Below are positions 26,372-41,025 of a stretch of DNA of 64,000 nucleotides, in pieces. A model generated the notes under the pieces. It was not told the DNA's origin, did no database searches, and saw only the letters and a list, made by a program, of their open reading frames with translations. The stretch is from a virus. The stretch spans positions 32,001 through 96,000 of the IMG/VR virus record IMGVR_UViG_3300037010_003037; one strand, 5' to 3'. How positions within the stretch are numbered: position 1 is the first letter of the stretch; the number at the start of each line of letters is the position of its first letter. The position numbers were made by a program, and so were the translations under genes.

Positions 26372-27169
26372 ATGGCACGTAACTCCCGAAAACAAAAATA
26401 CCCTCAACAAGTTCCTGCTGAATCTGCTGGGCAACCTGTAAAAATTCGCCACCAAACTAAACCAAAGAATATAGCTCAAGAGCTGTATCTAGAGTCTCTA
26501 AGAGAGCAGCCACTTACTATCTGTAGTGGTCCCGCTGGTTCTGGAAAAACATACCTTGTAACATTAGTCGCTATTGAAAAACTGCTCAACAATGAAGTTG
26601 ATCGGATTGTTATCACACGACCTGTTGTTGAAGCTGGAGAACATCTAGGATTTCTTCCAGGAACTCTTGAGGAAAAGCTTGATCCTTATCTTCTTCCCCT
26701 AATAGATGCCATTGAAGATCATATTGGTCCTACTATGGCAAAGAAACTTTTAGAAAGTGGTAAGATTGAAATTGCCCCGCTAGCATTTATGCGAGGTCGC
26801 ACGTTTAACAATTGTTTCGTTATCCTCGATGAAGCACAAAATGCGACGGTAGAACAAATTAAGATGTTTGTAACCCGCATGGGATATGACAGTATCTTCG
26901 CGATTAATGGTGACATTTCACAGTCTGATTTGCAAAAACCAAAGGGCGCTGGGTCTGATTGGGAAAATGGACTCCAGTTCATTATTCGTAAACTTAAAGG
27001 GAGGGACTCGAAGATCAGCTATATTGAATTCTTTAACAGAGATGTTGTTCGTTCTCAAATGGTCCAACGAATTCTAACTCTTCTTGACTCACCAGAGCCA
27101 AAACAGAGACATGATTTCTATGATCATGTAAACGGACACACGTGTATGGAGCCAAGAGAAAAGTCATAG
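26372..27169 (+). CDS. phoH: PhoH-family ATPase
   Basis: GPAGSGKT, TRPVVEAGE, LGFLPG, MRGRTF, LDEAQN, GDISQSD. Confidence 0.95.
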   Translation: MARNSRKQKYPQQVPAESAGQPVKIRHQTKPKNIAQELYLESLREQPLTICSGPAGSGKTYLVTLVAIEKLLNNEVDRIVITRPVVEAGEHLGFLPGTLEEKLDPYLLPLIDAIEDHIGPTMAKKLLESGKIEIAPLAFMRGRTFNNCFVILDEAQNATVEQIKMFVTRMGYDSIFAINGDISQSDLQKPKGAGSDWENGLQFIIRKLKGRDSKISYIEFFNRDVVRSQMVQRILTLLDSPEPKQRHDFYDHVNGHTCMEPREKS

Positions 27170-27263: not shown

Positions 27264-27271
27264 TATAAATA
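27264..27271 (+). promoter_or_regulatory. T4-type late promoter TATAAATA
   Basis: Exact octamer upstream of structural gene 27348. Confidence 0.7.
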
Positions 27272-27347: not shown

Positions 27348-28814
27348 ATGACAACATCTTACGATATTAAATGGCAAAGTGGTGGTAATGAAGGAATTCC
27401 TGGTAAAGAAGACATTATCTTACCACAAAAAACAAATAACTCAACGTCTACATCACTGACTCTAACTGGTCGTGGAGTTGCAAACTACGGTGAGATTCAA
27501 CAAGAAAACTTCATCCGTTTGATGGAGAATTTTGCTTCTGCATCCCCACCACCACATCCAACTATTGGTCAACTTTGGTATAATGCTGCTGAAAGCATTT
27601 TGTACTTGCGAGTTGACCCAGACACTGTAGGTGAGCTTCAACCACGCTATTTCCCGCAAAGCCCAGCAGCATGGGTGCAAATTTGGCCAAGTAGAACAAC
27701 CTTCGCATCTTTGACTGAATATGCACCAATGGCAGCGATGATAAACAAGATTATTGGCACGCCTTCAACAGAAGGTTCGTCAACAAATTGTGAAACTATC
27801 CAATATGGATGGGGTCAGACTGATTTAGTTCCAGAATATGATAGTGTAAACAAACTTAAAGCAGGATTTGATCCAAACATTTATCCTCAACAATTTGATA
27901 ATACAGCATGGGTTATTCTTCTTTCTCGTTTGAGAAAAGCGATGCGCCATGTTGGTTTAGATGAAAGTACAGTTTCTCCAGTAGGTTTTATTGATGATGG
28001 TCGCCCAACTCCACCAAATGGTAGCCATCTAGCAAATAATTATAATGATAATCCAGCTCAAACATCACTACCAGACTATACAGCAGGATGGGGTGGTGTT
28101 GGTTATTTGACATTGCAACTTTATTATGCAGCAACACTTAATGCAATATCTGATCTTAAAAATAATCGTTTAGCTCGTCCTCCTCAATCTACAGAAACAC
28201 ATGTTTTGGTAACAGCTACTAGAACAACCGCATGGGATTCTACAATTTCGCACACGGTACGGTTAACGTTCCAAGACGAAAACGCAGCTAAAGCATACTT
28301 TAACACTGGGGGTTCATTACAGTTTAATATGGATCTAGCATCACCTGGGTCTGATCTTATTAGCACTAACTGGTCCCAATGGTTAGCTTTGATCTCTGGA
28401 TTACACTTTGATCTTAAGGGAATTAAGCTTAACGATGGTAATTACTATGTTACGAGTAGCGGGCAGATCGTTGGGTTCTGTGATTTAACATCAACAATGA
28501 TGACGATATTTTCTAGAAGACGTGATATCGCGCATACTGGTTCAGGATATAATTCTTCTGTATATTCTGTGTATGATAATATTATTGACAGTGGTCTTCA
28601 AATTGATGCACGTCGATACAATAGTTCAGGTCATCACGTTCTAGAATTTGTTGTTCGTTTTATTGAAGATAACTCACAGAACATATATGGATCTGGTTTT
28701 ATCACAGGTAACCTTACATCAACTATTACTGGATACAAGGCTTCAGCTAACAATATAAACAGCCCAGTGATTGCATTTCCAACTACTGTGGGATCTGATA
28801 CTACAATCCAGTAA
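27348..28814 (+). CDS. Virion structural protein (baseplate/tail-associated)
   Basis: TSLTLTGRG...YGE...ENFIRLMENFA...GQLWY N-terminal module; YFNTGG; late promoter. Confidence 0.75.
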   Translation: MTTSYDIKWQSGGNEGIPGKEDIILPQKTNNSTSTSLTLTGRGVANYGEIQQENFIRLMENFASASPPPHPTIGQLWYNAAESILYLRVDPDTVGELQPRYFPQSPAAWVQIWPSRTTFASLTEYAPMAAMINKIIGTPSTEGSSTNCETIQYGWGQTDLVPEYDSVNKLKAGFDPNIYPQQFDNTAWVILLSRLRKAMRHVGLDESTVSPVGFIDDGRPTPPNGSHLANNYNDNPAQTSLPDYTAGWGGVGYLTLQLYYAATLNAISDLKNNRLARPPQSTETHVLVTATRTTAWDSTISHTVRLTFQDENAAKAYFNTGGSLQFNMDLASPGSDLISTNWSQWLALISGLHFDLKGIKLNDGNYYVTSSGQIVGFCDLTSTMMTIFSRRRDIAHTGSGYNSSVYSVYDNIIDSGLQIDARRYNSSGHHVLEFVVRFIEDNSQNIYGSGFITGNLTSTITGYKASANNINSPVIAFPTTVGSDTTIQ

Positions 28815-28839
28815 ATTTTTGTTGATTCTAGTATCTAAT

Positions 28840-28871
28840 AAATATCCCTGTCTAATGACAGGGATATTTTT
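28840..28871 (+). terminator. Intrinsic terminator overlapping a late-like TAAATA
   Basis: aaatatccctgtc-taat-gacagggatattt followed by Ts. Confidence 0.75.
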
Positions 28872-28908: not shown

Positions 28909-29289
28909 ATGACAGAACTACATCCTGATCTCCAGGCAGCACTTGATGCACGTCTTAATGACGCAATTGCAGCGGCAAACTATCGTCTTACTCTTAATAA
29001 TCAAAAACAAAACGCGCGACTAAAGCTTCAGAAAGATTTAATCTATGCCAAAAATGGTGGCATGTTCAACATTTCTCCTGAACTGATTTCATTTATTCAA
29101 TCGCTCATCAGCATGGGTAAGGAAGACGCGATTCTTCTTGATATAAACAAGAATCCAATTGAAATTTCTGATTTACTGGATTTCCAAGAAGCAATCGTGG
29201 CTCAGTACTATGAGTGCATGAATGATTTCTTATATGAATTCAAATCACTCCAAAAATCACGCACAACAAAAGCATTGATTGGGGAATAA
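28909..29289 (+). CDS. Hypothetical protein heading the glycosyltransferase operon
   Basis: 126-aa ORF with AAGGA RBS. Confidence 0.75.
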   Translation: MTELHPDLQAALDARLNDAIAAANYRLTLNNQKQNARLKLQKDLIYAKNGGMFNISPELISFIQSLISMGKEDAILLDINKNPIEISDLLDFQEAIVAQYYECMNDFLYEFKSLQKSRTTKALIGE

Positions 29290-29290
29290 T

Positions 29291-30181
29291 ATGACACGAG
29301 GAGTCGTATTATTTGGTGTAAACAACACTATGATAGACTATGTACAGCTATGTGTCATGGCCTCTGCTTTTGTAAAGAATAACATGCCAGGCACCCGTGT
29401 AGCACTCATTACAGATGAGTCAAGCTACTACGCGCAAGAATCTAAAGGGAAATGGCCACTTTCAGATTTCTTTGATAATGTAGTGATGATTCCACCACAT
29501 TTCAAAGAGAATTTTAGTAATAAACGAAAATATAAAGATACACGCTATTATGGTATTGATGCACCATTTCGTAATGAATCAAGAAGCTTAATTTATGAGC
29601 TTACTCCATATGATGAGACACTTTTAATTGATAGTGATTATTTAGTTTGCAATAATTCATTGAGCGCTGTTTGGGGGTCAAGTGAAGATGTAATGATTAA
29701 CACTAATGCAATTGGTTTGATGCATAATAAGCTTGAAGGGGCTGAGTTTAGGCTTAACCCGTTTGGAATTAAAATGCATTGGGCAACAGTCATTTACTTT
29801 AAGAAAAGTAAGCGCGCAAAACTTCTCTTTAATCTTGTAGAGCACATCAAAGAAAATTGGGATTTTTACAAGCTCACGTATGATTTCCCAGGTCATCTGT
29901 ACAGAAATGACTATGCTTTTTCCATTGCAATTCACATTCTAAATGGATTTGTTGAAAGCAGTGAGGTTGTAGCACCACTACCAGATAATAGTATCTTTAC
30001 TGCTCTCGATACAGATCAGTTCTATAAAATTAGATCTCCGTCTGATATGACATTCTTTGTGAATGACATCAAAGAAACATGGAAGTTCTATGCCACCCGT
30101 ATTAAGGGCCTAAATGTTCATTGTATGAACAAACTATCCTTGTTGAATAATATGGACAGTATCATGGAGGTCTTACAATGA
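29291..30181 (+). CDS. GT-A (GT8-like) glycosyltransferase-like protein
   Basis: TPYDETLLIDSD DxD motif; RNDYAFSIA; paralogue of the next gene. Confidence 0.7.
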   Translation: MTRGVVLFGVNNTMIDYVQLCVMASAFVKNNMPGTRVALITDESSYYAQESKGKWPLSDFFDNVVMIPPHFKENFSNKRKYKDTRYYGIDAPFRNESRSLIYELTPYDETLLIDSDYLVCNNSLSAVWGSSEDVMINTNAIGLMHNKLEGAEFRLNPFGIKMHWATVIYFKKSKRAKLLFNLVEHIKENWDFYKLTYDFPGHLYRNDYAFSIAIHILNGFVESSEVVAPLPDNSIFTALDTDQFYKIRSPSDMTFFVNDIKETWKFYATRIKGLNVHCMNKLSLLNNMDSIMEVLQ

Positions 30182-31041
30182 GCTCTCATGGGTTTTTTAC
30201 TATAGCACAGGGAAAAGAATATCAACGCCTTGCGTATGGACTAGCTCTATCTCTTAAGCTATCACAACCAGAACATTTGTCTAAATTGTCAATAGGGGTA
30301 ACTAAAGAAGAAAAATCTAGCATTGATCCAAAATACCTTGAAGTTTTTGATGAAGTTATCGAAATTCCATGGGAAGACCATGCGAAGAACAGCACATGGA
30401 AGCTAGAGAATGAATGGAAAGCCATCTATATGACACCATATGATGAGACGATCAAGCTAGATGCTGATATGCTATTTCCGACTGATATTAGTTATTGGTG
30501 GGAACTTTTATCTCTAAGCGATGGGGTTTTTGCTACATCTCCAAAGACATATCGTGGTGATATCATTACTAGTGATTTTTATCGCAAGACGTTTACAGAA
30601 AGTGATTTACCAAATGTATATACTGCGATGTTTTACTTCAAGAAAAATGATATAAACTTTGAACTGTTCAAGCTGGCTGAGTTCATCTTTAACAACTGGG
30701 AACGCTGCTTTTACGAATTCTTAAAACCAGACAATCGTCCTAAGTTTGTCTCTACAGATGTTGTGTTTGCCATCGCTGCAAAGATTTTGGATTACACGTC
30801 ATTGAATAAAACACCATTAGCAGATATTCCAACCTTTGTTCATATGAAAAGCCGACTGCAAGATTGGCCTGTTGACCAATTTATGGTTGAGGATTGGACA
30901 AAAATGATTCCTTATTATTTCAACAGAGATTGTACATTGAAAATTGGTAATTACGCTCAGCACTTACCTATTCATTATCACGTGAAGACCTTTTTAACGG
31001 ACAAGATGCTTCACACTATGGAAAGGAAGTTAGGACTATGA
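30178..31041 (+). CDS. GT-A (GT8-like) glycosyltransferase-like protein
   Basis: TPYDETIKLDADM DxD motif; STDVVFAIA; FVHMK. Confidence 0.7.
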   Translation: MSSHGFFTIAQGKEYQRLAYGLALSLKLSQPEHLSKLSIGVTKEEKSSIDPKYLEVFDEVIEIPWEDHAKNSTWKLENEWKAIYMTPYDETIKLDADMLFPTDISYWWELLSLSDGVFATSPKTYRGDIITSDFYRKTFTESDLPNVYTAMFYFKKNDINFELFKLAEFIFNNWERCFYEFLKPDNRPKFVSTDVVFAIAAKILDYTSLNKTPLADIPTFVHMKSRLQDWPVDQFMVEDWTKMIPYYFNRDCTLKIGNYAQHLPIHYHVKTFLTDKMLHTMERKLGL

Positions 31042-31865
31042 GCGCGCTACAAAATCTCATTAAGCAAATTAATCCGAACGTTGTTGCTTTTCAGGCATTT
31101 AAGAATAATCCAAAGTTTTATGCACATTTTGATCCAACTTCACTAAAGATCATCTCAATTAATGGTAAATCAAGCATAGAAAATCTTGGTAGTATTGAGC
31201 TTGATTATGAAATAGCACAAAAACTTCTTTCTGGAAAGGAAGATTTAAGCAAATGGATTGTTGGCGTAAAAAATGATAAGCCAACACTTGAGCGAATTGA
31301 TTCTGTTGACAGTTTTTTCATTAATCGTGTTGAACTAAATCCTATCATTAAACTTGATTTTAAGTCAACTGAAGAATATGACGATGAAGCAGAAGCCGCA
31401 AAGAAACGAAAACAAGCACTAAATGATGCGCTTGCTATAAAGCGCAAAAAAATTGAATCACTTATATCAAGAGCATCCCGTCCAAACTTCATGCCAAATG
31501 ATTATTGGCATGATCATATGTTAGTGCAACGAGCTGAACAAGTTACTGAAGATAATTATGATAGCATTTTTGATCTTATTATCAAGATTAACAGGGATGC
31601 AGGCACCGCATCATTCATTTACAATGGTGATATAATTTTAACTAAAGAAAAAATTCTTCGCTTTTACTTCACTAGAGAAGACGATCCATCGCATTTAAAA
31701 TGTGTCCTTAAATTAGATAAGAACACACTTGACAATGTCTTGAAAATAAACAATCTTGATAAATGGCCCAACCCACTTACGTTCAAAATTCCATTTGGAG
31801 CTGACGATTTATCAATTTATACAATTAAATCAGATCTAGAAATTATAGTGCTGGAGGAAAAATGA
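31038..31865 (+). CDS. Hypothetical protein within the glycosyltransferase operon
   Basis: 275-aa ORF with ATGA overlaps on both sides. Confidence 0.7.
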   Translation: MSALQNLIKQINPNVVAFQAFKNNPKFYAHFDPTSLKIISINGKSSIENLGSIELDYEIAQKLLSGKEDLSKWIVGVKNDKPTLERIDSVDSFFINRVELNPIIKLDFKSTEEYDDEAEAAKKRKQALNDALAIKRKKIESLISRASRPNFMPNDYWHDHMLVQRAEQVTEDNYDSIFDLIIKINRDAGTASFIYNGDIILTKEKILRFYFTREDDPSHLKCVLKLDKNTLDNVLKINNLDKWPNPLTFKIPFGADDLSIYTIKSDLEIIVLEEK

Positions 31866-32818
31866 GCAAGCATTCAATTACCGAGTTTGATGTCTTCTAT
31901 CTCTCATACGATGAACCACAAAAAGAAGAATTTTGGGCTAAAATTCAAGAACTAGCTCCATGGGCCAAACGAGTTGATGGTGTTAAGGGATTTGATTCAG
32001 CGCACAAGGCGTGTGCTGTGCAATCTGAAACTGATCGTTTTATCACAATTGATGGCGATAATATCGTTTATCCAGAGTTCTTTGAGCTAGAGCTAGATAT
32101 TCCTGATAATTTAAAGGACGCAACTCTTAGCTGGGCGGGTCGTAACATAATTAATGGGCTTGCGTATGGAAACGGTGGATTAAAACTTTGGACAAAAGAA
32201 TTTGTTCTCAATATGCGCACACATGAAAATGCGACACGTGATGAAGAGAAAGTAGATTTCTGCTGGGATGCTAAGTACGTACAACTCAACAACATTTATT
32301 CTGATACGTGTCCTAATGGCTCTCCATTCCAGGCATTTAGAGCTGGATTTAGAGAAGGAGTAAAGATGACGCTTGACAGAGGAATGAAGGCTGGTGAAGG
32401 ATCAGTATCACGATACGTTCATGAAAAAAATTATCGTCGCTTGCTTATCTGGGCATCTATTGGCGCTGATGTAGAAAATGGACTGTGGGCAATTTATGGA
32501 ACACGCCTTGGTATCTACATGGCAAACATTGAGGCATCATTTGATATCGCTCAAATTTCAGATTATGACTGGTTTAAGAATTACTTCTACAATGAGATTG
32601 CACCTATGCTAGAAGGTAATAAGACAGATAAGTGTTCACGAACTGGGCAGCGATGGGATAAGAACTTGCTGATTGAAAAAAGTAGAGAACTGTTAGCTCC
32701 GTTGCAAAAGAAACTTGGCATGAATATTACTGACATGACTCCAGAACAATCACTATTTTTCAAAACTGTATATGAGCCACCAGTTAGAAACGTTAATCCT
32801 TTAATGATTGAAAGCTGA
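31862..32818 (+). CDS. GT-A-fold glycosyltransferase-like protein
   Basis: FYLSYDEP, RVDGVKG, IDGD (DxD), YGNGGLKLW, AFRAGFREGVK; paralogue of the 43199 N-terminus. Confidence 0.65.
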   Translation: MSKHSITEFDVFYLSYDEPQKEEFWAKIQELAPWAKRVDGVKGFDSAHKACAVQSETDRFITIDGDNIVYPEFFELELDIPDNLKDATLSWAGRNIINGLAYGNGGLKLWTKEFVLNMRTHENATRDEEKVDFCWDAKYVQLNNIYSDTCPNGSPFQAFRAGFREGVKMTLDRGMKAGEGSVSRYVHEKNYRRLLIWASIGADVENGLWAIYGTRLGIYMANIEASFDIAQISDYDWFKNYFYNEIAPMLEGNKTDKCSRTGQRWDKNLLIEKSRELLAPLQKKLGMNITDMTPEQSLFFKTVYEPPVRNVNPLMIES

Positions 32819-33387
32819 TTTAGACATGGAACAGAACGCCTAAATTGTAAAGTAATTTTTAAAAACTAATTTTAATAGACACATATTCAAAATAAATTTA
32901 GATTTAATGTATTCATCTAATGAATTTAGTAAACTCGTGTAGAGTATATTCTTACAATGGATTAAATTTGAGAAATACTATGTTCAAACATTTTTTAACA
33001 TCCTAAATAAGAATAGGAATTTTGTTCAAACACAGCGTGTGATGACTATCAATGTGGGGCTATATTTAAATTTTACTGCATTCATGTAAGCTCATGTGAG
33101 GTAATAATATTAAGAGTTAAATATCCTCTCAAGAATTATTTCTATCATCTAATATTTTGCACTTTTCATCATTTCAAACAATACTGTTCTTCCAAAGGAT
33201 ATTATAAATAAAAGTGTTGACAAACTTGAAGAATAGTTTCATAAAAATGAAAATAAACTTTGAAATATTTGATAATGTGATAGTAATTTGTTGACAAAAA
33301 TTCTATAAAAACTAAAAAAAAAAGGCTACTGAGGAAAGTTGAATAAAACCTATTGTGTGTAAATCTTGAGTCAATGGTTAATGAAAA

Positions 33388-34302
33388 ATGAGAAAAACTA
33401 AATTATTTAGTGGTGATTTAACACAACAACAACAGATAACACGATTTAAACCAAATTCTGTTATGCTTTTTATTAATGGCAACAGAGATATAAATGATAC
33501 AGAAAAAGCCCTTAAAGAAAACAGAACAACTTATAGTCCGGCTGATGTAAATTATAAATTTAATAGTCATGGATTTAGATGTGATGAATTTGAAGAAACG
33601 AATTCACCGGTAATAGTTTTTACTGGCTGCTCATTTACGTTTGGTAGTAGCTTACCGTTAGAAGATGTATGGGCATACCGTGTAGTAAAAAGATTACGTG
33701 AAGAAGTAGATCCAAATATTAAGTATTTTAATATAGCAAAGCCTGGTGCATCTATAGATTCAATGGTTCGTGCCATTTTGGCATTTAGAAAACACTATAA
33801 TCCAGATGTAGTGGTTGGTTTGCTTCCTCAGATGATACGTTTAGAAATGTTTTGTGATCCGGGCGTAGTTAAAGAAGTTTTTTATGCGTCAGAAAACATA
33901 CGATCTTCAATTGATTATGTTGACCTACCTAATCATGCATTGCAAAATGTGAAAAACTATGAAGAGCTATTTTTCGGTGATCCTTTCTTAGATGCATATC
34001 GTCTGTCAAAAAATTTAGCTATGTTTGACATGTATCGAGAAATAACTGGTTGTGAAATGATTTTGTCATCATGGCAAAAATATGATGAATTATTTGAACA
34101 TATAGGTGATGATTATAGTCATTTGTTTACTCCTTTCTTTTATAATTGTGATATTACATGGCCGTTAAAAATTATAGGAAAGACAAGCAAATATGCTTTG
34201 GATGGTATGCATCCGGGACCAGCACATAATGAAGCTTTTGCTCATCTAATGTACCCACTGGTGAAAGCAGCTGTTGAAAAGAAAATAGCTAATAGAAAAT
34301 AA
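33388..34302 (+). CDS. SGNH/GDSL hydrolase-like protein, copy 1
   Basis: Block I GCSFTFG, block II NIAKPGAS, block V DGMHPG. Confidence 0.8.
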   Translation: MRKTKLFSGDLTQQQQITRFKPNSVMLFINGNRDINDTEKALKENRTTYSPADVNYKFNSHGFRCDEFEETNSPVIVFTGCSFTFGSSLPLEDVWAYRVVKRLREEVDPNIKYFNIAKPGASIDSMVRAILAFRKHYNPDVVVGLLPQMIRLEMFCDPGVVKEVFYASENIRSSIDYVDLPNHALQNVKNYEELFFGDPFLDAYRLSKNLAMFDMYREITGCEMILSSWQKYDELFEHIGDDYSHLFTPFFYNCDITWPLKIIGKTSKYALDGMHPGPAHNEAFAHLMYPLVKAAVEKKIANRK

Positions 34303-36291
34303 TTTGTCTAGATGTTTTTATATTGTCTTTAAAGAAATTAAAGATAGAAAAATAGAATGTCTAAATATAAAAAAAAGTTATTCACAGGTAATCTAAAAGA
34401 GCAGCATAATATTTGTCCTATGATGCCTAGCATAACTACACCTATTTGTGGTGTTAATTCTATACCTATTTGTGATAATGCAATCAAGGAAAATAGAACA
34501 GCTTATAGTCCTGCTGATGTAATATATAAGTCAAATAGTCATGGATTTAGATGTGATGAATTTGAAGAAACGAATTCACCGGTAATAGTTTTTACCGGTT
34601 GTTCATATACATTTGGTCTCTGTGTTCCACTAGAAGATGTATGGGCATACCGTATCATAAAAAGATTACGTGAAGAAGTAGATCCAAATATTAAGTATTT
34701 TAATATAGCAAAAGCAGGTTCATCTATAGATGCTATGATTCGCGCTCTTTTGACATTTAGAAAACACTATAATCCAGATGTTGTCGTTGGTTTGCTTCCG
34801 CCGAGATGGCGAATAGAATTGTTTTGTGATCCAGGAGAGATTAAAGACTTAGTACATCAATCAGTAAATTTACGTAAGTTATTTAGTTTTGATATTTCAT
34901 CTGAAACTGAAAAAGAAACACTACTCAAATACGAAGAGCTATTTCTTGGTGATCCTTTCTTAGATGCATATCGTCTGTCAAAAAATTTAGCTATGTTTGA
35001 CATGTATCGAGAAATAACTGGTTGTGAAATGATTTTGTCATCATGGCAAAAATATGATGAATTATTTGAACATATAGGTGATGATTATAGTCATTTGTTT
35101 ACTCCTTTTTGGATGGACCCTGATATAACTTGGCCAGTAAAAATTATAGGAAAAACAAGCAAATACGCTTTAGATGGTGGACATCCTGGACCAGCACATA
35201 ATGAAGCTTTTGCTCATCTAATGTACCCACTGGTGAAAGCAGCTGTTGAAAAGAAAATAATTAACAGAAAAACTAGTTCTTTAGAAGAATTAGAATAACT
35301 GTATCGAATTAAATTCAAAAACGAATATCAGTAAATATATCATTCATTTTATGATGATGTCTCGAAATTGATTAAACATACAAAAGAAAAGGACTAAAAT
35401 GGCTGAACATCAAATGATATTTGCAGGTGATCTAAAAACGCAATATTATGTTCGTCCTTTAGTGCCTAACATAACTACACCTATTCTTAATGTTAATTTA
35501 ATACCCACTATTGAAGAAGCTCTTAAAAAGAACAGAACAGCTTATAGTCCCGCTGATGTAATCTATAAGTCAAATAGTCATGGATATAGATGTGATGAAT
35601 TTGAAGAGACAGATGCCCCCGTAATAGTTTTTGTTGGCTGCTCATATACATTTGGCTCTGGCGTTCCACTAGAAGATGTATGGGCATACCGTGTAGTAAA
35701 AAGATTACGTGAAGAAGTAGATCCAAATATTAAGTATTTTAATATAGCAAAGCCTGGTGCATCTATAGATTCAATGGTTCGTGCCATTTTGGCATTTAGA
35801 AAACACTATAATCCAGATGTAGTGGTTGGTTTGCTTCCGCCGAGATGGCGAATAGAATTGTTTTGTGATCCAGGAGAGATTAAAGATCTTGTGTATCAAT
35901 CAGCAAATTTGCAGAAGTTATTTCGTCTTGCAAATTCATCTGAGGCTGCAAAAGAAACATTACGTAAGTATGAAGAGTTTTTTCTCGGTGATCCTTTCTT
36001 AGACGCATATCGTCTGTCAAAAAATTTAGCTATGTTTGACATGTATAGAGAAATAACTGGTTGCGAAATGATATTGTCTTCATGGCAAAATTATAAAGAG
36101 CTATTTAAACATGTAGGTGATGATTATAGTCATTTGTTTACTCCTTTTTGGATGGACCCTGATATAACTTGGCCAGTAAAAATTATAGGAAAAACAAGCA
36201 AATATGCTTTGGATGGTATGCATCCAGGACCAGCTCATAATGAAGCTTTTGCTCATCTAATGTACCCATTAGTAAAAGCTGCTGTTGAAAA
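33520..36291 (+). repeat. Three tandem ~1-kb imperfect direct repeats (gene triplication)
   Basis: By-eye alignment: 33659-33827 matches 35670-35838; 33976-34136 matches 34948-35108. Confidence 0.9.
34357..35298 (+). CDS. SGNH/GDSL hydrolase-like protein, copy 2
   Basis: GCSYTFG, NIAKAGSS, DGGHPG. Confidence 0.8.
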   Translation: MSKYKKKLFTGNLKEQHNICPMMPSITTPICGVNSIPICDNAIKENRTAYSPADVIYKSNSHGFRCDEFEETNSPVIVFTGCSYTFGLCVPLEDVWAYRIIKRLREEVDPNIKYFNIAKAGSSIDAMIRALLTFRKHYNPDVVVGLLPPRWRIELFCDPGEIKDLVHQSVNLRKLFSFDISSETEKETLLKYEELFLGDPFLDAYRLSKNLAMFDMYREITGCEMILSSWQKYDELFEHIGDDYSHLFTPFWMDPDITWPVKIIGKTSKYALDGGHPGPAHNEAFAHLMYPLVKAAVEKKIINRKTSSLEELE

Positions 36292-36319
36292 ACGAATAGA
36301 GAAAAATAGATTAGAGTGA
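35399..36319 (+). CDS. SGNH/GDSL hydrolase-like protein, copy 3
   Basis: GCSYTFG, NIAKPGAS, DGMHPG. Confidence 0.8.
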   Translation: MAEHQMIFAGDLKTQYYVRPLVPNITTPILNVNLIPTIEEALKKNRTAYSPADVIYKSNSHGYRCDEFEETDAPVIVFVGCSYTFGSGVPLEDVWAYRVVKRLREEVDPNIKYFNIAKPGASIDSMVRAILAFRKHYNPDVVVGLLPPRWRIELFCDPGEIKDLVYQSANLQKLFRLANSSEAAKETLRKYEEFFLGDPFLDAYRLSKNLAMFDMYREITGCEMILSSWQNYKELFKHVGDDYSHLFTPFWMDPDITWPVKIIGKTSKYALDGMHPGPAHNEAFAHLMYPLVKAAVEKRIEKNRLE

Positions 36320-36380
36320 ATGTATATCCAAACATAAATAATTCATACTAATCATCAAGAATAAAACACATATCTATATT

Positions 36381-37772
36381 ATGAGCAATCAGCAAAGAAT
36401 CACAAAACTTAAAGAAAAAATCGAGCAGATTAATGCTGTCAGCCCAACATTTTGCTTAGCAAAATGGAAACAAACAACAACAACGTTGTACAACGGCATG
36501 ACACATTCATGTCACCATCCCTCACCGCATAAAATTCAAGTTGAGGATATCAAGAATAACCCACGTGGCTTACATAATACACCTATCAAAATTGCTGCCC
36601 GTCAAGACATGTTAAATGGCATTCAAACAAAAGAATGTGACTATTGCTGGAATATTGAAAATCTAGGGCAACAACATTTTTCTGATAGGCATTACAAAAG
36701 CGCGTCTGAAAACATGGGTATCTGGCAAACTCTTGAAGAGGTAAAAGCATCAGGCCTTGGAGAAAATATTGACCCGGCATACATGGAAATTGCTTTTGAA
36801 AATACATGTAATTTTAAGTGCGCATACTGTTCTCCAGCCGTAAGTTCTCGTTGGATGGAAGAAGTGCAAGCCCATGGTCCATACCAATTACCTCATCATA
36901 CTCATCACCACTTGGATTGGCTGAAACAAACAGGACAATTTCCTATTCATCATAAAGAATATAACCCATATATTGAGGCATTTTGGAAGTGGTGGCCTGA
37001 ACTATACCAAAATTTGTACACCTTTCGTATTACAGGTGGTGAACCATTGCTCAGTGAAAACACCTGGAAGATCATTGACTACGTGATCGCTAACCCACGT
37101 AAAGACTTTAAGCTTGCTATCAACACGAACATGAACGTGCCTGCTAAGCTGATCGACCGCTTAATTAAAAGTATTAACGAACTTGAATCTAAAATACATG
37201 AGATTGACATTTTTACCTCAGCAGAAGGAACAGGAAAACAACAGGAATATTCACGTTTTGGCATGGAATGGGATGTGTTTGTAGCTAACTGCGAAAAATT
37301 TCTTGAACAAACACCAGAAAGCGTTCGGCTTCAGTTCATGACAACTGTTAACCTATTTTCATTTTCAACATTTGATAAGTTCTTGCTGTGGATTTCTGAT
37401 TTACGTGGCAAGTTCAACAAGGACGTTGCATATAGCCGAGTAGGCTTTTCTGTAGCTTATCTTCGTTGGCCTCAGTTCTTATCTTTGACACTTCTATCTT
37501 CAGAAGAAAAGGCTGATTTTGCTAGAAGACTACAAGCAGTTATTGACGAGACTAATTCTCGCCCACAGTTGCAGCGCTTTTATATAGAAGAAATTGATAT
37601 GATTCATCGTCTCATTGACTTCATTAACTCTGTAGAGAATGGCCAACAGATAGAGATTGAAAATTTTGCAGCGTTTGTAGATGAATATGATAAACGTAAA
37701 GGAACGAATTTTTTTGAGACGTTTCCAGAGCTTGTTGATTTATACAATCGCGGTAAAATCAGAAAAACTTAA
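36381..37772 (+). CDS. Radical SAM enzyme with N-terminal Cys-rich (permuted twitch/SPASM-like) domain
   Basis: CNFKCAYC, ITGGEPLL, INTN; N-terminal FCLAKW...SCHH...ECDYCW. Confidence 0.9.
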   Translation: MSNQQRITKLKEKIEQINAVSPTFCLAKWKQTTTTLYNGMTHSCHHPSPHKIQVEDIKNNPRGLHNTPIKIAARQDMLNGIQTKECDYCWNIENLGQQHFSDRHYKSASENMGIWQTLEEVKASGLGENIDPAYMEIAFENTCNFKCAYCSPAVSSRWMEEVQAHGPYQLPHHTHHHLDWLKQTGQFPIHHKEYNPYIEAFWKWWPELYQNLYTFRITGGEPLLSENTWKIIDYVIANPRKDFKLAINTNMNVPAKLIDRLIKSINELESKIHEIDIFTSAEGTGKQQEYSRFGMEWDVFVANCEKFLEQTPESVRLQFMTTVNLFSFSTFDKFLLWISDLRGKFNKDVAYSRVGFSVAYLRWPQFLSLTLLSSEEKADFARRLQAVIDETNSRPQLQRFYIEEIDMIHRLIDFINSVENGQQIEIENFAAFVDEYDKRKGTNFFETFPELVDLYNRGKIRKT

Positions 37773-37814
37773 TATAACTCTCATAAATAAAATTTTCAAC
37801 TTGTCTTCAAAACT

Positions 37815-37925
37815 ATGAAAAACCTATTAGATAAAATTAAAGAACTTATATCTCAATGGAAATATAAGAAAGCTAGAAAAAAGCGCTTGGCAGAAATGAA
37901 AAAGAAGGATCCATTCATTTATTAA
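37815..37925 (+). CDS. 36-aa basic peptide ending DPFIY (below ORF-track cutoff)
   Basis: MKNLLDKIKELISQWKYKKARKKRLAEMKKKDPFIY*; CATAAATA at 37782; ends 1 nt before the carbamoyltransferase ATG. Confidence 0.7.
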   Translation: MKNLLDKIKELISQWKYKKARKKRLAEMKKKDPFIY

Positions 37926-37926
37926 T

Positions 37927-39405
37927 ATGAATATTTGGGGCATAAATGCAATGAATCACGATGCTTCAATAAGCGTCGTGGATTCTGATACTGGATCTAT
38001 CCTTTTTGCGGGACACGCAGAACGTTATAGTAGAATAAAAAATGATCCAAACTTAAATGAAGGGTTGATAGCTGACGCATGTCAGGTTGGTAAACCTGAT
38101 ATTATAGTTTGGTACGAAAACCCATATGGAAGAAAGATACGTAACCTTCTAAGTGGAGATTTTGAATCTTTTTTTACATGGGAATCTCCGCAAAAGTATC
38201 TTAAAGCATATGGAATTGACGCACCGGTAAAGTATTCAAATCACCATGCTTCACATGCTGCTGGTGGTTTTTACACATCAGGGTTTAATGATGCTGCCAT
38301 TCTTGTTGTTGATGCTATAGGAGAAATGTCAACTGCATCTATTTGGCACGCGCGTGGGGAAAAACTTACTAAAAAATGGTCTTTAAATTATCCCCATTCA
38401 GTTGGGTTGTTTTACAGCGCCATAACAGATCTAGTAGGTTTGAAGCCAAATGAAGAAGAATACATTCTTATGGGAATGGCCGCGTACTCAAAGCACAACT
38501 ATATTCTAACTGATTATGTGCTTAACACGTTCTTTAAAGATGACCTATGTCTAAAGCAAAGATTCAATTTTCATCGTGGTGTAAGAGGTGATAGTTTTCT
38601 TCAATATGTTGCTTCTACAGAGCAAGGAAAATATGATCTTGCTGGAATGGCACAAGAAATTGTTGAAATGTGCGTTCAACGACTTGTTGATATGACAGAG
38701 GATTTTGTGGACTCTGAAAATCTGGTGTATTCTGGTGGAGTTGCGCTAAACTGTGTAGCAAATGAAAAAATACAGCATAATTATAAAAACGTTTGGATTT
38801 TGCCTAATCCTGGTGATGCCGGAAATTCGCTTGGAGCCATAGCAAACTACCTTAGAAAACCACTTAAGTGGAATGGACCTTTCTTAGGTTATGAAATTAA
38901 AAAAGCACTTGATGTTGATGCTATAGTAGAAGAATTACTAACTACTGGTATTTGTGGCGTCGCACACGGAAGAGCCGAGTTTGGCCCGCGCGCATTTGGT
39001 AACAGATCACTTCTTGCAGATCCACGCAGACCGGATATCAAGGATAAAGTAAACAGCATTAAGAGACGTCAAAAATTTAGACCTTTTGCCCCTGCTGTTT
39101 TATCTAGGTTCGCTAACGAGTACTTTTATCTTGACGATACTAGCAAAGATGCTAAGTACATGCAATATGCTGTACCAGTAATTGTTGATAATCTACCAGC
39201 AATCACACATGCTGATGGAACTGCTAGGGTACAAGTTGTTTCTGATGAAGCCACTACACTTAATCAAATTCTCGAGGCATGGTATGTAAAAACTGGTTGC
39301 CCGGTTTTACTAAACACTTCTCTAAACATAAAAGGAGAACCATTAGTGAACACGTGGGAAGATGCTGTTAGATGGCAGAATTGTTACAATGTTAAGGTTT
39401 TTTGA
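37927..39405 (+). CDS. Carbamoyltransferase (CmcH/NodU family)
   Basis: HDAS, ERYSRIK, HHASHAA, VDAIGE, MGMAAY, GGVALNC, GDAG, EFGPRAFGNRS, FRPFAP, LLNTSLN. Confidence 0.95.
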   Translation: MNIWGINAMNHDASISVVDSDTGSILFAGHAERYSRIKNDPNLNEGLIADACQVGKPDIIVWYENPYGRKIRNLLSGDFESFFTWESPQKYLKAYGIDAPVKYSNHHASHAAGGFYTSGFNDAAILVVDAIGEMSTASIWHARGEKLTKKWSLNYPHSVGLFYSAITDLVGLKPNEEEYILMGMAAYSKHNYILTDYVLNTFFKDDLCLKQRFNFHRGVRGDSFLQYVASTEQGKYDLAGMAQEIVEMCVQRLVDMTEDFVDSENLVYSGGVALNCVANEKIQHNYKNVWILPNPGDAGNSLGAIANYLRKPLKWNGPFLGYEIKKALDVDAIVEELLTTGICGVAHGRAEFGPRAFGNRSLLADPRRPDIKDKVNSIKRRQKFRPFAPAVLSRFANEYFYLDDTSKDAKYMQYAVPVIVDNLPAITHADGTARVQVVSDEATTLNQILEAWYVKTGCPVLLNTSLNIKGEPLVNTWEDAVRWQNCYNVKVF

Positions 39406-39448: not shown

Positions 39449-39477
39449 TTCACAGCTGGTTCTAGGTGGTGTATAAT
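39449..39477 (+). promoter_or_regulatory. Early/sigma70-type promoter
   Basis: gTTCACA-N17-TATAAT. Confidence 0.6.
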
Positions 39478-39503
39478 TACACATCACTCACTAATGTGCT
39501 GTT

Positions 39504-39815
39504 ATGTCCTACAAGCTTTTCATTGATGATGAACGCTGGCCTATTGATGATGGAACGACATGGGTGATAGCTCGGTCTTCTGCTGATGCTATCACAGCGG
39601 TTGAGTGTCTGGGTGTGCCAGAATATATCAGCTACGATCATGATCTTGGCGGTGATGATACTTCCATCAAGTTTATCTGGTGGTTGATTAACGCGTACTT
39701 GGACAAAAAGATCACAACATTTCCAATCAATTATTATGTGCACAGCCAAAACCCAGTTGGCGCGGAAAACATTCGCTCTCTGTTGTTTAGTTTTATCGAA
39801 TCTGAAGTAAAATAA
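39504..39815 (+). CDS. Cyclic-phosphate-processing receiver-like domain protein
   Basis: LFIDDER...ISYDHDLG...VHSQNPVG. Confidence 0.75.
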   Translation: MSYKLFIDDERWPIDDGTTWVIARSSADAITAVECLGVPEYISYDHDLGGDDTSIKFIWWLINAYLDKKITTFPINYYVHSQNPVGAENIRSLLFSFIESEVK

Positions 39816-39882
39816 TGTAACTCGACGTGAATTTTTAATTCACAGATGATACAATAGCTTCTAAACTTAAAGTGAGATTAAA

Positions 39883-41025
39883 ATGCTGCACATCTCTAAC
39901 ATCGATGAATTTCGTTCCCATGTAGCGCACAAGGAAGAAATCCGTGAAATGGATATCGGTTTTGATTCCATTTCTTTCTGCTACATGGTCGCTGCTGAAA
40001 AAACGTTTGATGATGCGTGGGCACTCGAGTGTCGTGGCATTGTTTTTGATAAAGTTTCTGGTCGTGTGAGTGGTCGACCATTGCACAAATTTTTTAACGT
40101 TGGTGAACGAGAATCCACGCTTCCTGAAAATCTTGATTGGTCAAAGGTTGTGCGTGTTATGGATAAGCGTGATGGATCACTAATTCATACGGTGCAGACG
40201 GCTCATGGTGTTAGGTTAAAATCTAAGAAGACATTTAGCTCAGCCGTTGCGCTAGCTGCTGAAAAATGGATGCGTGAACAGCCGGGTCAGCACGTCCTAT
40301 CTTTTGCTAACTTTGTCACTGCTCAAAATTTAACAGCTATCTTTGAATGGACGGCGCCGGATGCTCGCATTGTGCTGTTCTATCCAGAAGCTGAACTACG
40401 ATTGTTGCATATTCGTCATAATGAAACTGGCGATTATGTTGCTGGGAACATCTTAAAAGAATGGGCTGAAAAATTTAACGTGAATGTTGTTGATGAAGTT
40501 GATGAATTCTTTGAAGCCCAAGGTAGTCAGACCACATTCAATCATCGCAAGATGTTGGAAGCAGCGAAGACTCGCGAGGGTATTGAAGGCTGGGTTGTCC
40601 AGTTCGAGAATGGTGACATGGTCAAGGTAAAGACCGATTGGTACCTAAAACGCCACCATGCAATGACATTTCTTCGTGAACGAGATATCGCGCAACTAGT
40701 TTTGGACGAAAGCTTGGATGACATGAAGTCGCTGCTGGTTTCAGAAGGCGTCAACATTAATGAAATTCTTGAGATTGAAGAGCGTGTTCTTCATGACCTA
40801 CGCGAAATTGCGTTGACTGTTGACATGATCTATAGTGAAGATAAGGACTTGCCACGAAAAGATTTTGCGATCAAGCACAGCTCACACAAGTACTTTGGTA
40901 TGCTGATGGCAAAGTACAGTGGTAAAGAGCCTTCGTTTAAGGACTACTTCGCGCGCAATGTGTTGAAGAACAACTACAGTCTGCGTCAGTTAGTTCTTGT
41001 TCCTTCAGTTGCTGAAGGTGATTAA
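39883..41025 (+). CDS. RNA ligase 1 (T4 RnlA family)
   Basis: ECRG, KFFN, motif I KRDGS, FEW, EGWV, KVKTDWY. Confidence 0.88.
   Translation: MLHISNIDEFRSHVAHKEEIREMDIGFDSISFCYMVAAEKTFDDAWALECRGIVFDKVSGRVSGRPLHKFFNVGERESTLPENLDWSKVVRVMDKRDGSLIHTVQTAHGVRLKSKKTFSSAVALAAEKWMREQPGQHVLSFANFVTAQNLTAIFEWTAPDARIVLFYPEAELRLLHIRHNETGDYVAGNILKEWAEKFNVNVVDEVDEFFEAQGSQTTFNHRKMLEAAKTREGIEGWVVQFENGDMVKVKTDWYLKRHHAMTFLRERDIAQLVLDESLDDMKSLLVSEGVNINEILEIEERVLHDLREIALTVDMIYSEDKDLPRKDFAIKHSSHKYFGMLMAKYSGKEPSFKDYFARNVLKNNYSLRQLVLVPSVAEGD

Follow-up and report, generated by a model that had tools for sequence, protein, structure and literature searches.

Phage glycosyltransferases are usually assigned either to the protection of DNA or to the conversion of the O-antigen, and mycobacteriophages are known to glycosylate their virions. 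In the known virion glycosylation systems (the mycobacteriophage capsid and tail, A64R of PBCV-1 and the fibril clusters of mimivirus) soluble GT-A-type transferases are encoded beside structural genes without lipid-carrier machinery, and this is also the layout of the gene cluster described here. The cluster occupies positions 28909-39405 of a 64,000-nucleotide stretch, hereafter the window, which represents bases 32001-96000 of a 147.7-kb IMG/VR contig (IMGVR_UViG_3300037010_003037). The contig is rated 42% complete by CheckV, implying a phage genome of about 350 kb, and the nearest deposited genome is that of the Ralstonia jumbo phage RsoM2USA (MG752970.1). Compared with the known systems the module adds putative tailoring by radical SAM, SGNH and carbamoyl-transferring enzymes. 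We propose, with a probability of roughly 40%, that it O-glycosylates and tailors the adjacent fibre-like protein or other virion proteins.

Two further systems invite comparison. The host recognition cluster of pelagimyophages and cyanomyophages (PMC7029224) is likewise a variable island by tail-fibre genes, with GT8-type transferases and swappable radical SAM cassettes; the core described below is strictly syntenic, whereas those islands are hypervariable, and its genes for GT8-like transferase B, the GT-A-like protein and the radical SAM enzyme have no detectable homologue in the deposited cyanophage and pelagiphage records. The islands were read as modifying the host O-chain, which is itself a proposal (PMC7029224). 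With the glycosylation of serine-rich-repeat (SRR) adhesins (GspB/PsrP) the analogy is one of logic only: there several soluble transferases act one after another in the cytoplasm to build a glycan on a fibrous, Ser/Thr-rich surface protein, and this glycan is O-acetylated (PMC5578698, PMC7948813). The SRR system has an accessory Sec and the GT4 priming pair GtfA/B, whereas the module has neither of these and no sequences homologous to that system. Similar islands near fibre genes are already described (PMC7029224), and the only deposited phage homologue of the core genes is in RsoM2USA.

A fixed core and an exchangeable cassette

Judged by its gene content across phages, the block is a fixed core joined to a recurrent, swappable tailoring cassette. 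To the core belong the Ser/Thr-rich fibre-like protein and the 126-aa protein, together with a pair of GT8-like transferases, a GT-A-like protein and at least one twitch radical SAM enzyme; the cassette in the window consists of three SGNH genes, a small basic peptide and an O-carbamoyltransferase. The gene content that an initial annotation had read from the sequence of 28909-39405 was borne out, every open reading frame (ORF) lying on the + strand at the following positions.

27348..28814, + strand: fibre-like protein of 488 aa, candidate acceptor; match to phrog_14394, homologous to the upstream ORFs of relatives
28909..29289, + strand: 126-aa protein encoded by the gene that opens the conserved module; 53 of the 80 loci have a homologue
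29291..30181, + strand: GT8-like glycosyltransferase A; profile match to glycogenin, D114 and D116 invariant
30178..31041, + strand: GT8-like glycosyltransferase B; family profile match to glycogenin, D97 invariant
31038..31865, + strand: 275-aa protein in a variable slot; weak relatives only (23-26%) in close loci
31862..32818, + strand: 318-aa protein with predicted GT-A fold; N-terminal domain (2-173) and helical C-terminal domain
32819..33387, no strand: AT-rich non-coding spacer of 570 bp; variable insertion site where relatives hold different cassettes
33388-34302, 34357-35298 and 35399-36319, + strand: three tandem SGNH-fold paralogues (~305 aa), assigned by AlphaFold2 (AF2)/Foldseek and conserved residues
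36381..37772, + strand: N-terminal-twitch radical SAM enzyme; NF033640, CX3CX2C
37815..37925, + strand: basic 36-aa ORF ending in DPFIY; conserved, coupled to the next gene (carbamoyltransferase)
37927..39405, + strand: NodU/CmcH-type O-carbamoyltransferase; both Pfam domains, catalytic motifs intact

Synteny was counted in the 80 best loci out of 442 viral-contig relatives of the 318-aa GT-A-like protein. It is clear from these loci that the order GT8, GT8, (variable ORF), GT-A, radical SAM is kept wherever the contig reaches, while loci shortened by a contig end display part of the core order only. The enzyme order is conserved in RsoM2USA as well, where ORF355-349 follow the order of the core at 38-52% identity, with an unrelated 184-aa ORF in the slot of the 275-aa protein; the module lies there within the tail region, beside the virion protein ORF356, which was confirmed by mass spectrometry, and the GDP-mannose 4,6-dehydratase ORF358. 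A megablast of the block against phages gave zero matches, and homologues of the core genes for GT8-like B, the GT-A-like protein and the radical SAM enzyme were found in RsoM2USA alone among 50,697 deposited phage records. The earlier statement that related gene sets occur in other large phages is right, and narrows to this one phage among the deposited records. A shorter contig labelled as a Fischerella metagenome-assembled genome (JANZYY010000027.1, 18,955 bp) carries the fibre-like gene, the 126-aa gene, two GT8 genes, the GT-A gene and a radical SAM gene, and is probably of phage origin, having been binned with cyanobacterial contigs.

The region 3' of the GT-A gene is where the cassette varies. 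Close relatives have there a gene for a methyltransferase, for an FG-GAP protein or for an aminotransferase, or else a sugar nucleotidyltransferase together with a HAD phosphatase. In the window the 570-bp spacer and the SGNH triplet fill the interval from the GT-A gene to the radical SAM gene. A carbamoyltransferase sometimes follows the radical SAM genes in the loci of relatives. In RsoM2USA a separate stretch (123467-128228) encodes a second radical SAM paralogue (34% identity), two ORFs of ~283 aa and a carbamoyltransferase (48% identity); these genes lie about 90 kb from the core module of that phage, and core and cassette can thus be unlinked.

The ORF directly upstream of the module belongs to one homologous Ser/Thr-rich family of 310-580 aa with mostly 20-34% Ser+Thr. 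In a BLAST clustering the full-length upstream ORFs of 48 loci fell into one cluster, to which the 488-aa protein of the window also belongs, and this fibre-like partner is constant across phages from very different habitats. In the 488-aa protein the Ser+Thr fraction is 0.19, compared with a contig median of 0.12, and residues 20-84 match phrog_14394, “virion structural protein”, at E 1e-9. The structural gene that the initial annotation placed just upstream is hence present as a fibre-like ORF, and the label “structural” comes solely from this N-terminal match. The ESM Atlas gave weak fibre-like leads only for the family. For the 126-aa protein a role as fibre chaperone is a lead only; the nearest named cluster in the ESM Atlas, DUF4376 (score 0.91), was dropped as an identity, being confirmed neither by Pfam on 20 members nor by PDB profiles.

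Enzymes and promoter-like motifs of the module

Searches with single proteins in Pfam, NCBIfam and PHROGs gave nothing for 8 of the 11 cluster genes, and of the cluster proteins only two, the radical SAM enzyme and the carbamoyltransferase, are recognised by Pfam from a single sequence. Family profiles and predicted folds recovered all the enzymes that the initial annotation had named, from the GT8-like pair, the GT-A protein and the three SGNH proteins to the radical SAM enzyme and the carbamoyltransferase.

GT8-like A, which starts at the ATG at 29291 rather than the TTG at 29279, and GT8-like B, which is 49.6% identical to RsoM2USA_352, are ~290 aa each and have no Pfam or NCBIfam match at E<=0.01. 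Family alignments were built from viral relatives, and the resulting A and B profiles are clearly homologous (hhalign prob 99.7, E 1.4e-26). The best PDB match of both is glycogenin, a GT8 enzyme, with E 4e-6 for B and 0.04 for A, in an alignment that spans only ~105 N-terminal residues, the half with the DxD. The invariant residues listed above are DxD residues, D97 of B lying within D/E-A-D. The T-even beta-alpha-glucosyltransferase was considered as a relative of the two genes and rejected (prob <1).

The AF2 model of the 318-aa protein has a confidence (pLDDT) of 87.4. Its residues 2-173 superimpose on GT-A glycosyltransferases and nucleotidyltransferases with Z 8-9.4 and a root-mean-square deviation of 3.2-3.5 over 135-145 residues, the structural neighbours including B4GALNT1, STIV A197, POMGnT1, PBCV-1 A64R and SpsA, and D64-x-D66, the DxD that comes after strand 4 of this Rossmann-like domain, is invariant in the family. 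The third glycosyltransferase-like gene of the initial annotation thus models as a GT-A fold. Foldseek matches reach E about 1e-3 and include PBCV-1 A64R and pneumococcal GlyE, which we take to act in the pneumococcal SRR pathway. Viral transferases are found among the neighbours of the GT-A domain (the PBCV-1 capsid glycosyltransferase, STIV A197 and mimivirus R699/R655), and with A64R and R699/R655 the likeness is structural, without sequence homology. We infer that the protein is a transferase rather than a nucleotidyltransferase, at Z values that lie near the noise band and are reached alike by nucleotidyltransferases. The GT-A-like family comprises at least 8000 protein clusters, not one of which bears a name or a Pfam domain. 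Among the relatives of the 318-aa protein, lengths of ~530-550 aa are frequent and suggest duplication or fusion, and the main copy often has a shorter paralogue of about 240-350 aa (27-35% identity) behind it, RsoM2USA_348 being an example.

The three SGNH paralogues share 72-82% of their amino acids and 84-87% of their nucleotides, and the GC content of the genes is lower, about 33%. The predicted catalytic residues, G80-C81-S82 of block I and D272-x-x-H275 of block V, are invariant in 9 sequences, and the Asp of GDS is replaced by Cys; in the oxyanion blocks II and III G120 is invariant and a clear GxND block was not identified. The AF2 model (pLDDT 72, disordered N-terminus) finds SGNH/GDSL esterases in nearly all of the listed Foldseek matches, the best E being 2.5e-6 and the target TM score 0.55-0.71. 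Fold, Ser nucleophile and Asp-x-x-His are hence all present, as the original designation of the three proteins would have them. A close-relative scan for SGNH genes gave nothing, whereas a profile scan gave 220 viral relatives, and the genomic context was counted in 80 loci out of these. A carbamoyltransferase lies in the same stretch in 33 of the 80 SGNH loci, usually adjoining the SGNH gene and often behind radical SAM arrays.

The radical SAM enzyme scores 332.9 bits against NF033640 (N_Twi_rSAM, cut-off 170), and its invariant cysteines are C143-x3-C147-x2-C150 together with the N-terminal C25, C44, C86 and C89. Its paralogues stand in tandem, and a single locus can reach 7 tblastn matches (6 full-length ORFs); jumbo-phage loci with such arrays include L058, L082, L044 and L030. 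The carbamoyltransferase has both Pfam domains above their cut-offs (164 and 130 bits) and aligns end-to-end with NovN, the motifs HHxxH, GGVALN, DAG, GRAEFGPRAxGNRS, RPFAP and THxDGxARVQ all aligning; these matches confirm both enzyme identities. Its closest solved relatives (NovN, GdmN and TobZ) are small-molecule enzymes, and the carbamoyltransferases of cyanophages and pelagiphages are 27-36% identical to it.

Between these two genes lies the 36-aa peptide, which proved to be a genuine and conserved ORF. Very basic ORFs of ~30-37 aa with DPFIY recur in at least 12 distant loci (including L014, L016, L030, L044/45, L055, L065, L067, L070/72, L075 and L085), the Tyr being followed by K or H in many copies. 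The stop of the ORF overlaps or abuts the start of the next gene in every copy whose stop region was read, and this gene is usually a carbamoyltransferase, or a GDS-type SGNH gene in L075 and L067. The ORF thus tracks the carbamoyltransferase or SGNH gene rather than the radical SAM gene, and it was not detected in core loci showing no carbamoyltransferase or SGNH gene. Three roles are conceivable for it, as a subunit, as a leader or arrest peptide with a regulatory function, or as a precursor peptide.

The five TAAATA cores noted initially (about 28839, 33203, 35332, 36333 and 37782) are all present where they had been placed, the one at 35331 reading GTAAATA. As criterion for a T4-type late promoter we used TATAAATA about 30-100 nt upstream of, and oriented with, the gene. 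The regulatory features in and around the block are listed below.

27264..27271, + strand: perfect TATAAATA, 83 nt upstream of the fibre-like gene
28837..28844, + strand: AATAAATA, late-promoter-like motif (7/8 match) overlapping the 5' arm of the hairpin
28840..28869, + strand: hairpin with 13-bp stem and 4-nt loop, then a T run; terminator features for the fibre gene
33203-33210, + strand: perfect TATAAATA inside the 570-bp spacer
36333..36340, + strand: CATAAATA motif (7/8 match), 47 nt upstream of the radical SAM gene
37782..37789, + strand: CATAAATA motif (7/8 match), 33 nt upstream of the 36-aa ORF
39449..39477, + strand: best sigma-70-like site of the region scanned (TTCACA-17-TATAAT, 11/12), just beyond the cluster and ahead of cREC_REC/Rnl1; marks the 3' boundary

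TATAAATA alone occurs at chance level in the window (6 found, 4.6 expected). Contig-wide, ATAAATA within <=150 nt upstream of genes is gene-oriented in 26 cases and opposite in 5, and of 29 distinct intergenic regions between the fibre-like and 126-aa genes of relatives, 19 have TAAATA at the corresponding site. The fibre/126-aa intergenic region of the window has a folding energy of -23.6 kcal/mol, and its layout of motif plus hairpin is common to L009, L011, L012 and L017, the motif abutting a strong hairpin in the close clade. The hairpin would end the fibre transcript and form a 5' element of the module transcript. Sigma-70-like sites occur in the block at chance level (48 found, 52.5 expected); the spacer also carries two TTGACA boxes, and an Rfam scan of the region, including the spacer at 32819-33387, gave no match. 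Beyond the cluster, window positions 39449-41025 encode a cREC_REC receiver-like protein and a T4 Rnl1-type RNA ligase, probably an RNA-repair pair of a different temporal class, and L009-L013 and L017 likewise have this pair behind the module. Just 5' of the fibre/module block lies a PhoH-family gene (26372-27169), and a PIN-PhoH gene (L124:6490-7806) lies just 5' of a radical SAM array in Bdellovibrionales, which is probably a coincidence.

A T4-style DNA-modification pathway on the same contig

The contig holds two genes of the ThyA family, a canonical ThyA and a T-even-like dCMP hydroxymethylase. The hydroxymethylase is 50-58% identical to the T-even dCMP hydroxymethylases (56% to Tequatrovirus gp42) and has both D177, the equivalent of N177 in E. 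coli and relevant for dCMP specificity, and D169; as it keeps D169 it should not be a 5-hydroxycytosine (5hoC) synthase. The residue criteria for ThyA-type hydroxymethylases were taken from PMC8670742 and PMC13326640. A homologue of the T4 beta-glucosyltransferase (PF09198, 72 bits) lies 3 kb from the hydroxymethylase and adjoins a Tmk-like kinase, within the following feature.

G000:C1:16465-21715 of the same contig (window -15535 to -10285; L089, L090): T4-style DNA-modification module with hydroxymethylase, DEAD/ResIII helicase, Tmk-like kinase and beta-glucosyltransferase homologue

From these genes the module predicts glucosyl-5-hydroxymethylcytosine DNA in a jumbo phage. The beta-glucosyltransferase family is also present in G001, G011 and RsoM2USA, with a 74%-identical homologue in G015, and in all four of these genomes it is paired with the hydroxymethylase. 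In G002 a hydroxymethylase is present and a beta-glucosyltransferase was not detected; the suspicion that the G002 hydroxymethylase is broken by 2 TGA codons was rejected, tblastn showing it to be intact. For the T4 alpha-glucosyltransferase (PF11440) there was no match, but the control was equally silent and the result is uninformative. Elsewhere on the same contig, G000:C1:3796-11649 (L089) encodes a Ro60/TROVE-vWA protein and a PrkA/DUF444/SpoVR trio (a stress operon of the yeaG-yeaH-ycgB type), which is unusual phage cargo.

By its gene neighbourhoods the glycosyltransferase cluster is independent of the 5-hydroxymethylcytosine (5hmC) pathway, because the hydroxymethylase and the beta-glucosyltransferase form a separate pair and because the module persists in relatives of 98-99% completeness that have no hydroxymethylase. 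The initial view that the cluster does not modify DNA is upheld in so far as the cluster is separate from this pair, while the argument offered for it, that T4-type DNA-modifying enzymes are early genes, is weak.

Proposed decoration of the virion and its alternatives

If the module decorates the virion, soluble transferases would work in the cytoplasm at a late stage of infection, from nucleotide sugars of the host, and would place a short O-linked glycan stepwise on the upstream-encoded fibre-like protein or on other virion proteins. The radical SAM enzyme would then alter the sugar or the protein, the SGNH enzymes would add or remove O-acyl groups, and the carbamoyltransferase would add a carbamoyl group to a sugar hydroxyl. 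Glycosylation of the fibre protein appears to be the simplest reading because there are no membrane segments (none is predicted in any cluster protein, the maximal KD19 hydropathy being <=1.42), no lipid-carrier, flippase or polymerase genes were seen among the genes scanned, the fibre partner is constant and relatives carry sugar-nucleotide enzymes. A fuller version, in which the glycan is tailored by the radical SAM enzyme, acylated and carbamoylated, and in which the DPFIY ORF acts as a leader peptide that governs expression or activity of the tailoring enzymes, is distinctly more tentative.

Several observations weigh against decoration of the virion. The 488-aa protein is only moderately Ser/Thr-rich (19%), its family has no Pfam or PDB match and, for the short forms, no PHROG match, and its role in the virion is itself inferred. 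Between the fibre gene and the enzyme genes stands a hairpin that resembles a terminator. Late expression of the module is no more than plausible, judged by the motifs. On Bdellovibrionales chromosomes (L124, which is OZ220490.1, and L122) twitch radical SAM genes occur alone or arrayed, without any of the module transferases, in a neighbourhood of housekeeping genes that is uninformative; because the family occurs there without transferases, the substrate of the radical SAM enzyme need not be a glycan. Two further points concern the GT8 genes and favour a target on the host, namely that the GT8 family includes the transferases of the lipopolysaccharide (LPS) core, which have no membrane segments either, and that O-chain modification has been favoured in pelagimyophages for GT8 genes beside tail fibres (PMC7029224).

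These last points lead to remodelling of the host envelope, where the transferases would act at the inner membrane face on precursors of LPS core, O-antigen or capsule and the tailoring enzymes would decorate that glycan, changing the cell surface and for example excluding other phages or stopping re-adsorption of the progeny. Carbamoyl and acetyl decoration is common on surface glycans, and no enzyme of the module needs to be in the particle. Nevertheless we regard this as unlikely: no flippase, polymerase, ligase or lipid-carrier-priming enzyme was found among the scanned neighbours here and in relatives, a scan that did not take in every ORF, the cluster proteins lack predicted membrane segments, the fixed partner across phages of very different hosts is the fibre-like protein and not a host-specific function, and late-type motifs fit exclusion poorly since exclusion is needed early. 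Far less probable is hypermodification of DNA, with the carbamoyltransferase as a 5hmC enzyme and the transferases and tailoring enzymes decorating hydroxymethyl- or glucosyl-cytosine. It became a serious rival because the contig encodes a gp42-type dCMP hydroxymethylase. In addition, the small peptide coupled to the carbamoyltransferase is so basic that binding to nucleic acid is conceivable. The known 5hmC/5hoC glycosyltransferases match GT-B-type enzymes, as is generally held and as a published structural-match table also gives it, while those of the cluster are GT-A-like, and the GT8-like genes do not match the T-even beta-alpha-glucosyltransferase. A phage carbamoyltransferase of the same superfamily, from uncultured phages that also encode a dCMP hydroxymethylase, has 5-carbamoyloxymethylcytosine as its product and is found together with ThyA homologues in modified contigs (PMC8670742), and poly-glycosylated cytosines are known from other phages (PMC13326640). 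Such co-occurrence is not what we find here: the enzyme of the window is not adjacent to the hydroxymethylase, which lies about 53 kb off, and a dedicated beta-glucosyltransferase stands beside hydroxymethylase and Tmk-like kinase about 40 kb from the cluster. Moreover, G003 (99% complete) has no ThyA-family gene and yet carries the whole module with a 46%-identical orthologue of the carbamoyltransferase and the peptide, G005 (98% complete) keeps the core with a canonical ThyA only, and the glycosyltransferase-flanked carbamoyltransferases of Yang et al. derived from unmodified contigs (PMC8670742).

A diffusible or peptide product would put the DPFIY ORF at the centre, as a precursor resembling those of the ribosomally synthesized and post-translationally modified peptides; on the analogy of mycofactocin, the twitch radical SAM enzyme would process it before sugar, acyl and carbamoyl groups are attached. 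Another possible product is a decorated small-molecule glycoside. Peptide maturation is typical of SPASM/twitch radical SAM enzymes, the radical SAM arrays, amplified to up to 7 tblastn matches (6 full-length) per locus, have next to them a conserved ORF of 30-37 aa whose C-terminus is constant, and the closest solved carbamoyltransferases act on small molecules. We nevertheless consider such a product improbable, somewhat less so than DNA hypermodification, as the peptide follows the carbamoyltransferase or SGNH gene with overlapping stop and start, often has K or H after the Tyr, and is undetected in core loci showing neither of these genes. The radical SAM arrays of Bdellovibrionales have no cluster proteins nearby (such a peptide was not specifically searched for there), and the fixed link to the fibre gene is left unexplained. 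That the answer lies in something other than these explanations is about as unlikely as an envelope target.

Keeping the module apart from the T4-style DNA pathway guards against mis-annotation of its carbamoyltransferase as a 5hmC enzyme, and the analysis exposes several large families that lack annotation, those of the GT-A-like protein, of the Ser/Thr-rich fibre-like protein and of the DPFIY peptide, along with the arrays of twitch radical SAM enzymes. RsoM2USA is the one cultured phage in which the product of the module can be settled. Should the fuller version with its tailored glycan hold, it would represent a virus-encoded, lipid-carrier-free glycosylation of protein with a chemistry unseen on any virion and carried out by unannotated families. 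If the module does decorate the particle, this conserved and abundant set of genes would give phage glycosyltransferases a third role, with consequences for host recognition, for stability and for the way in which immune systems and other microbes see phage particles.

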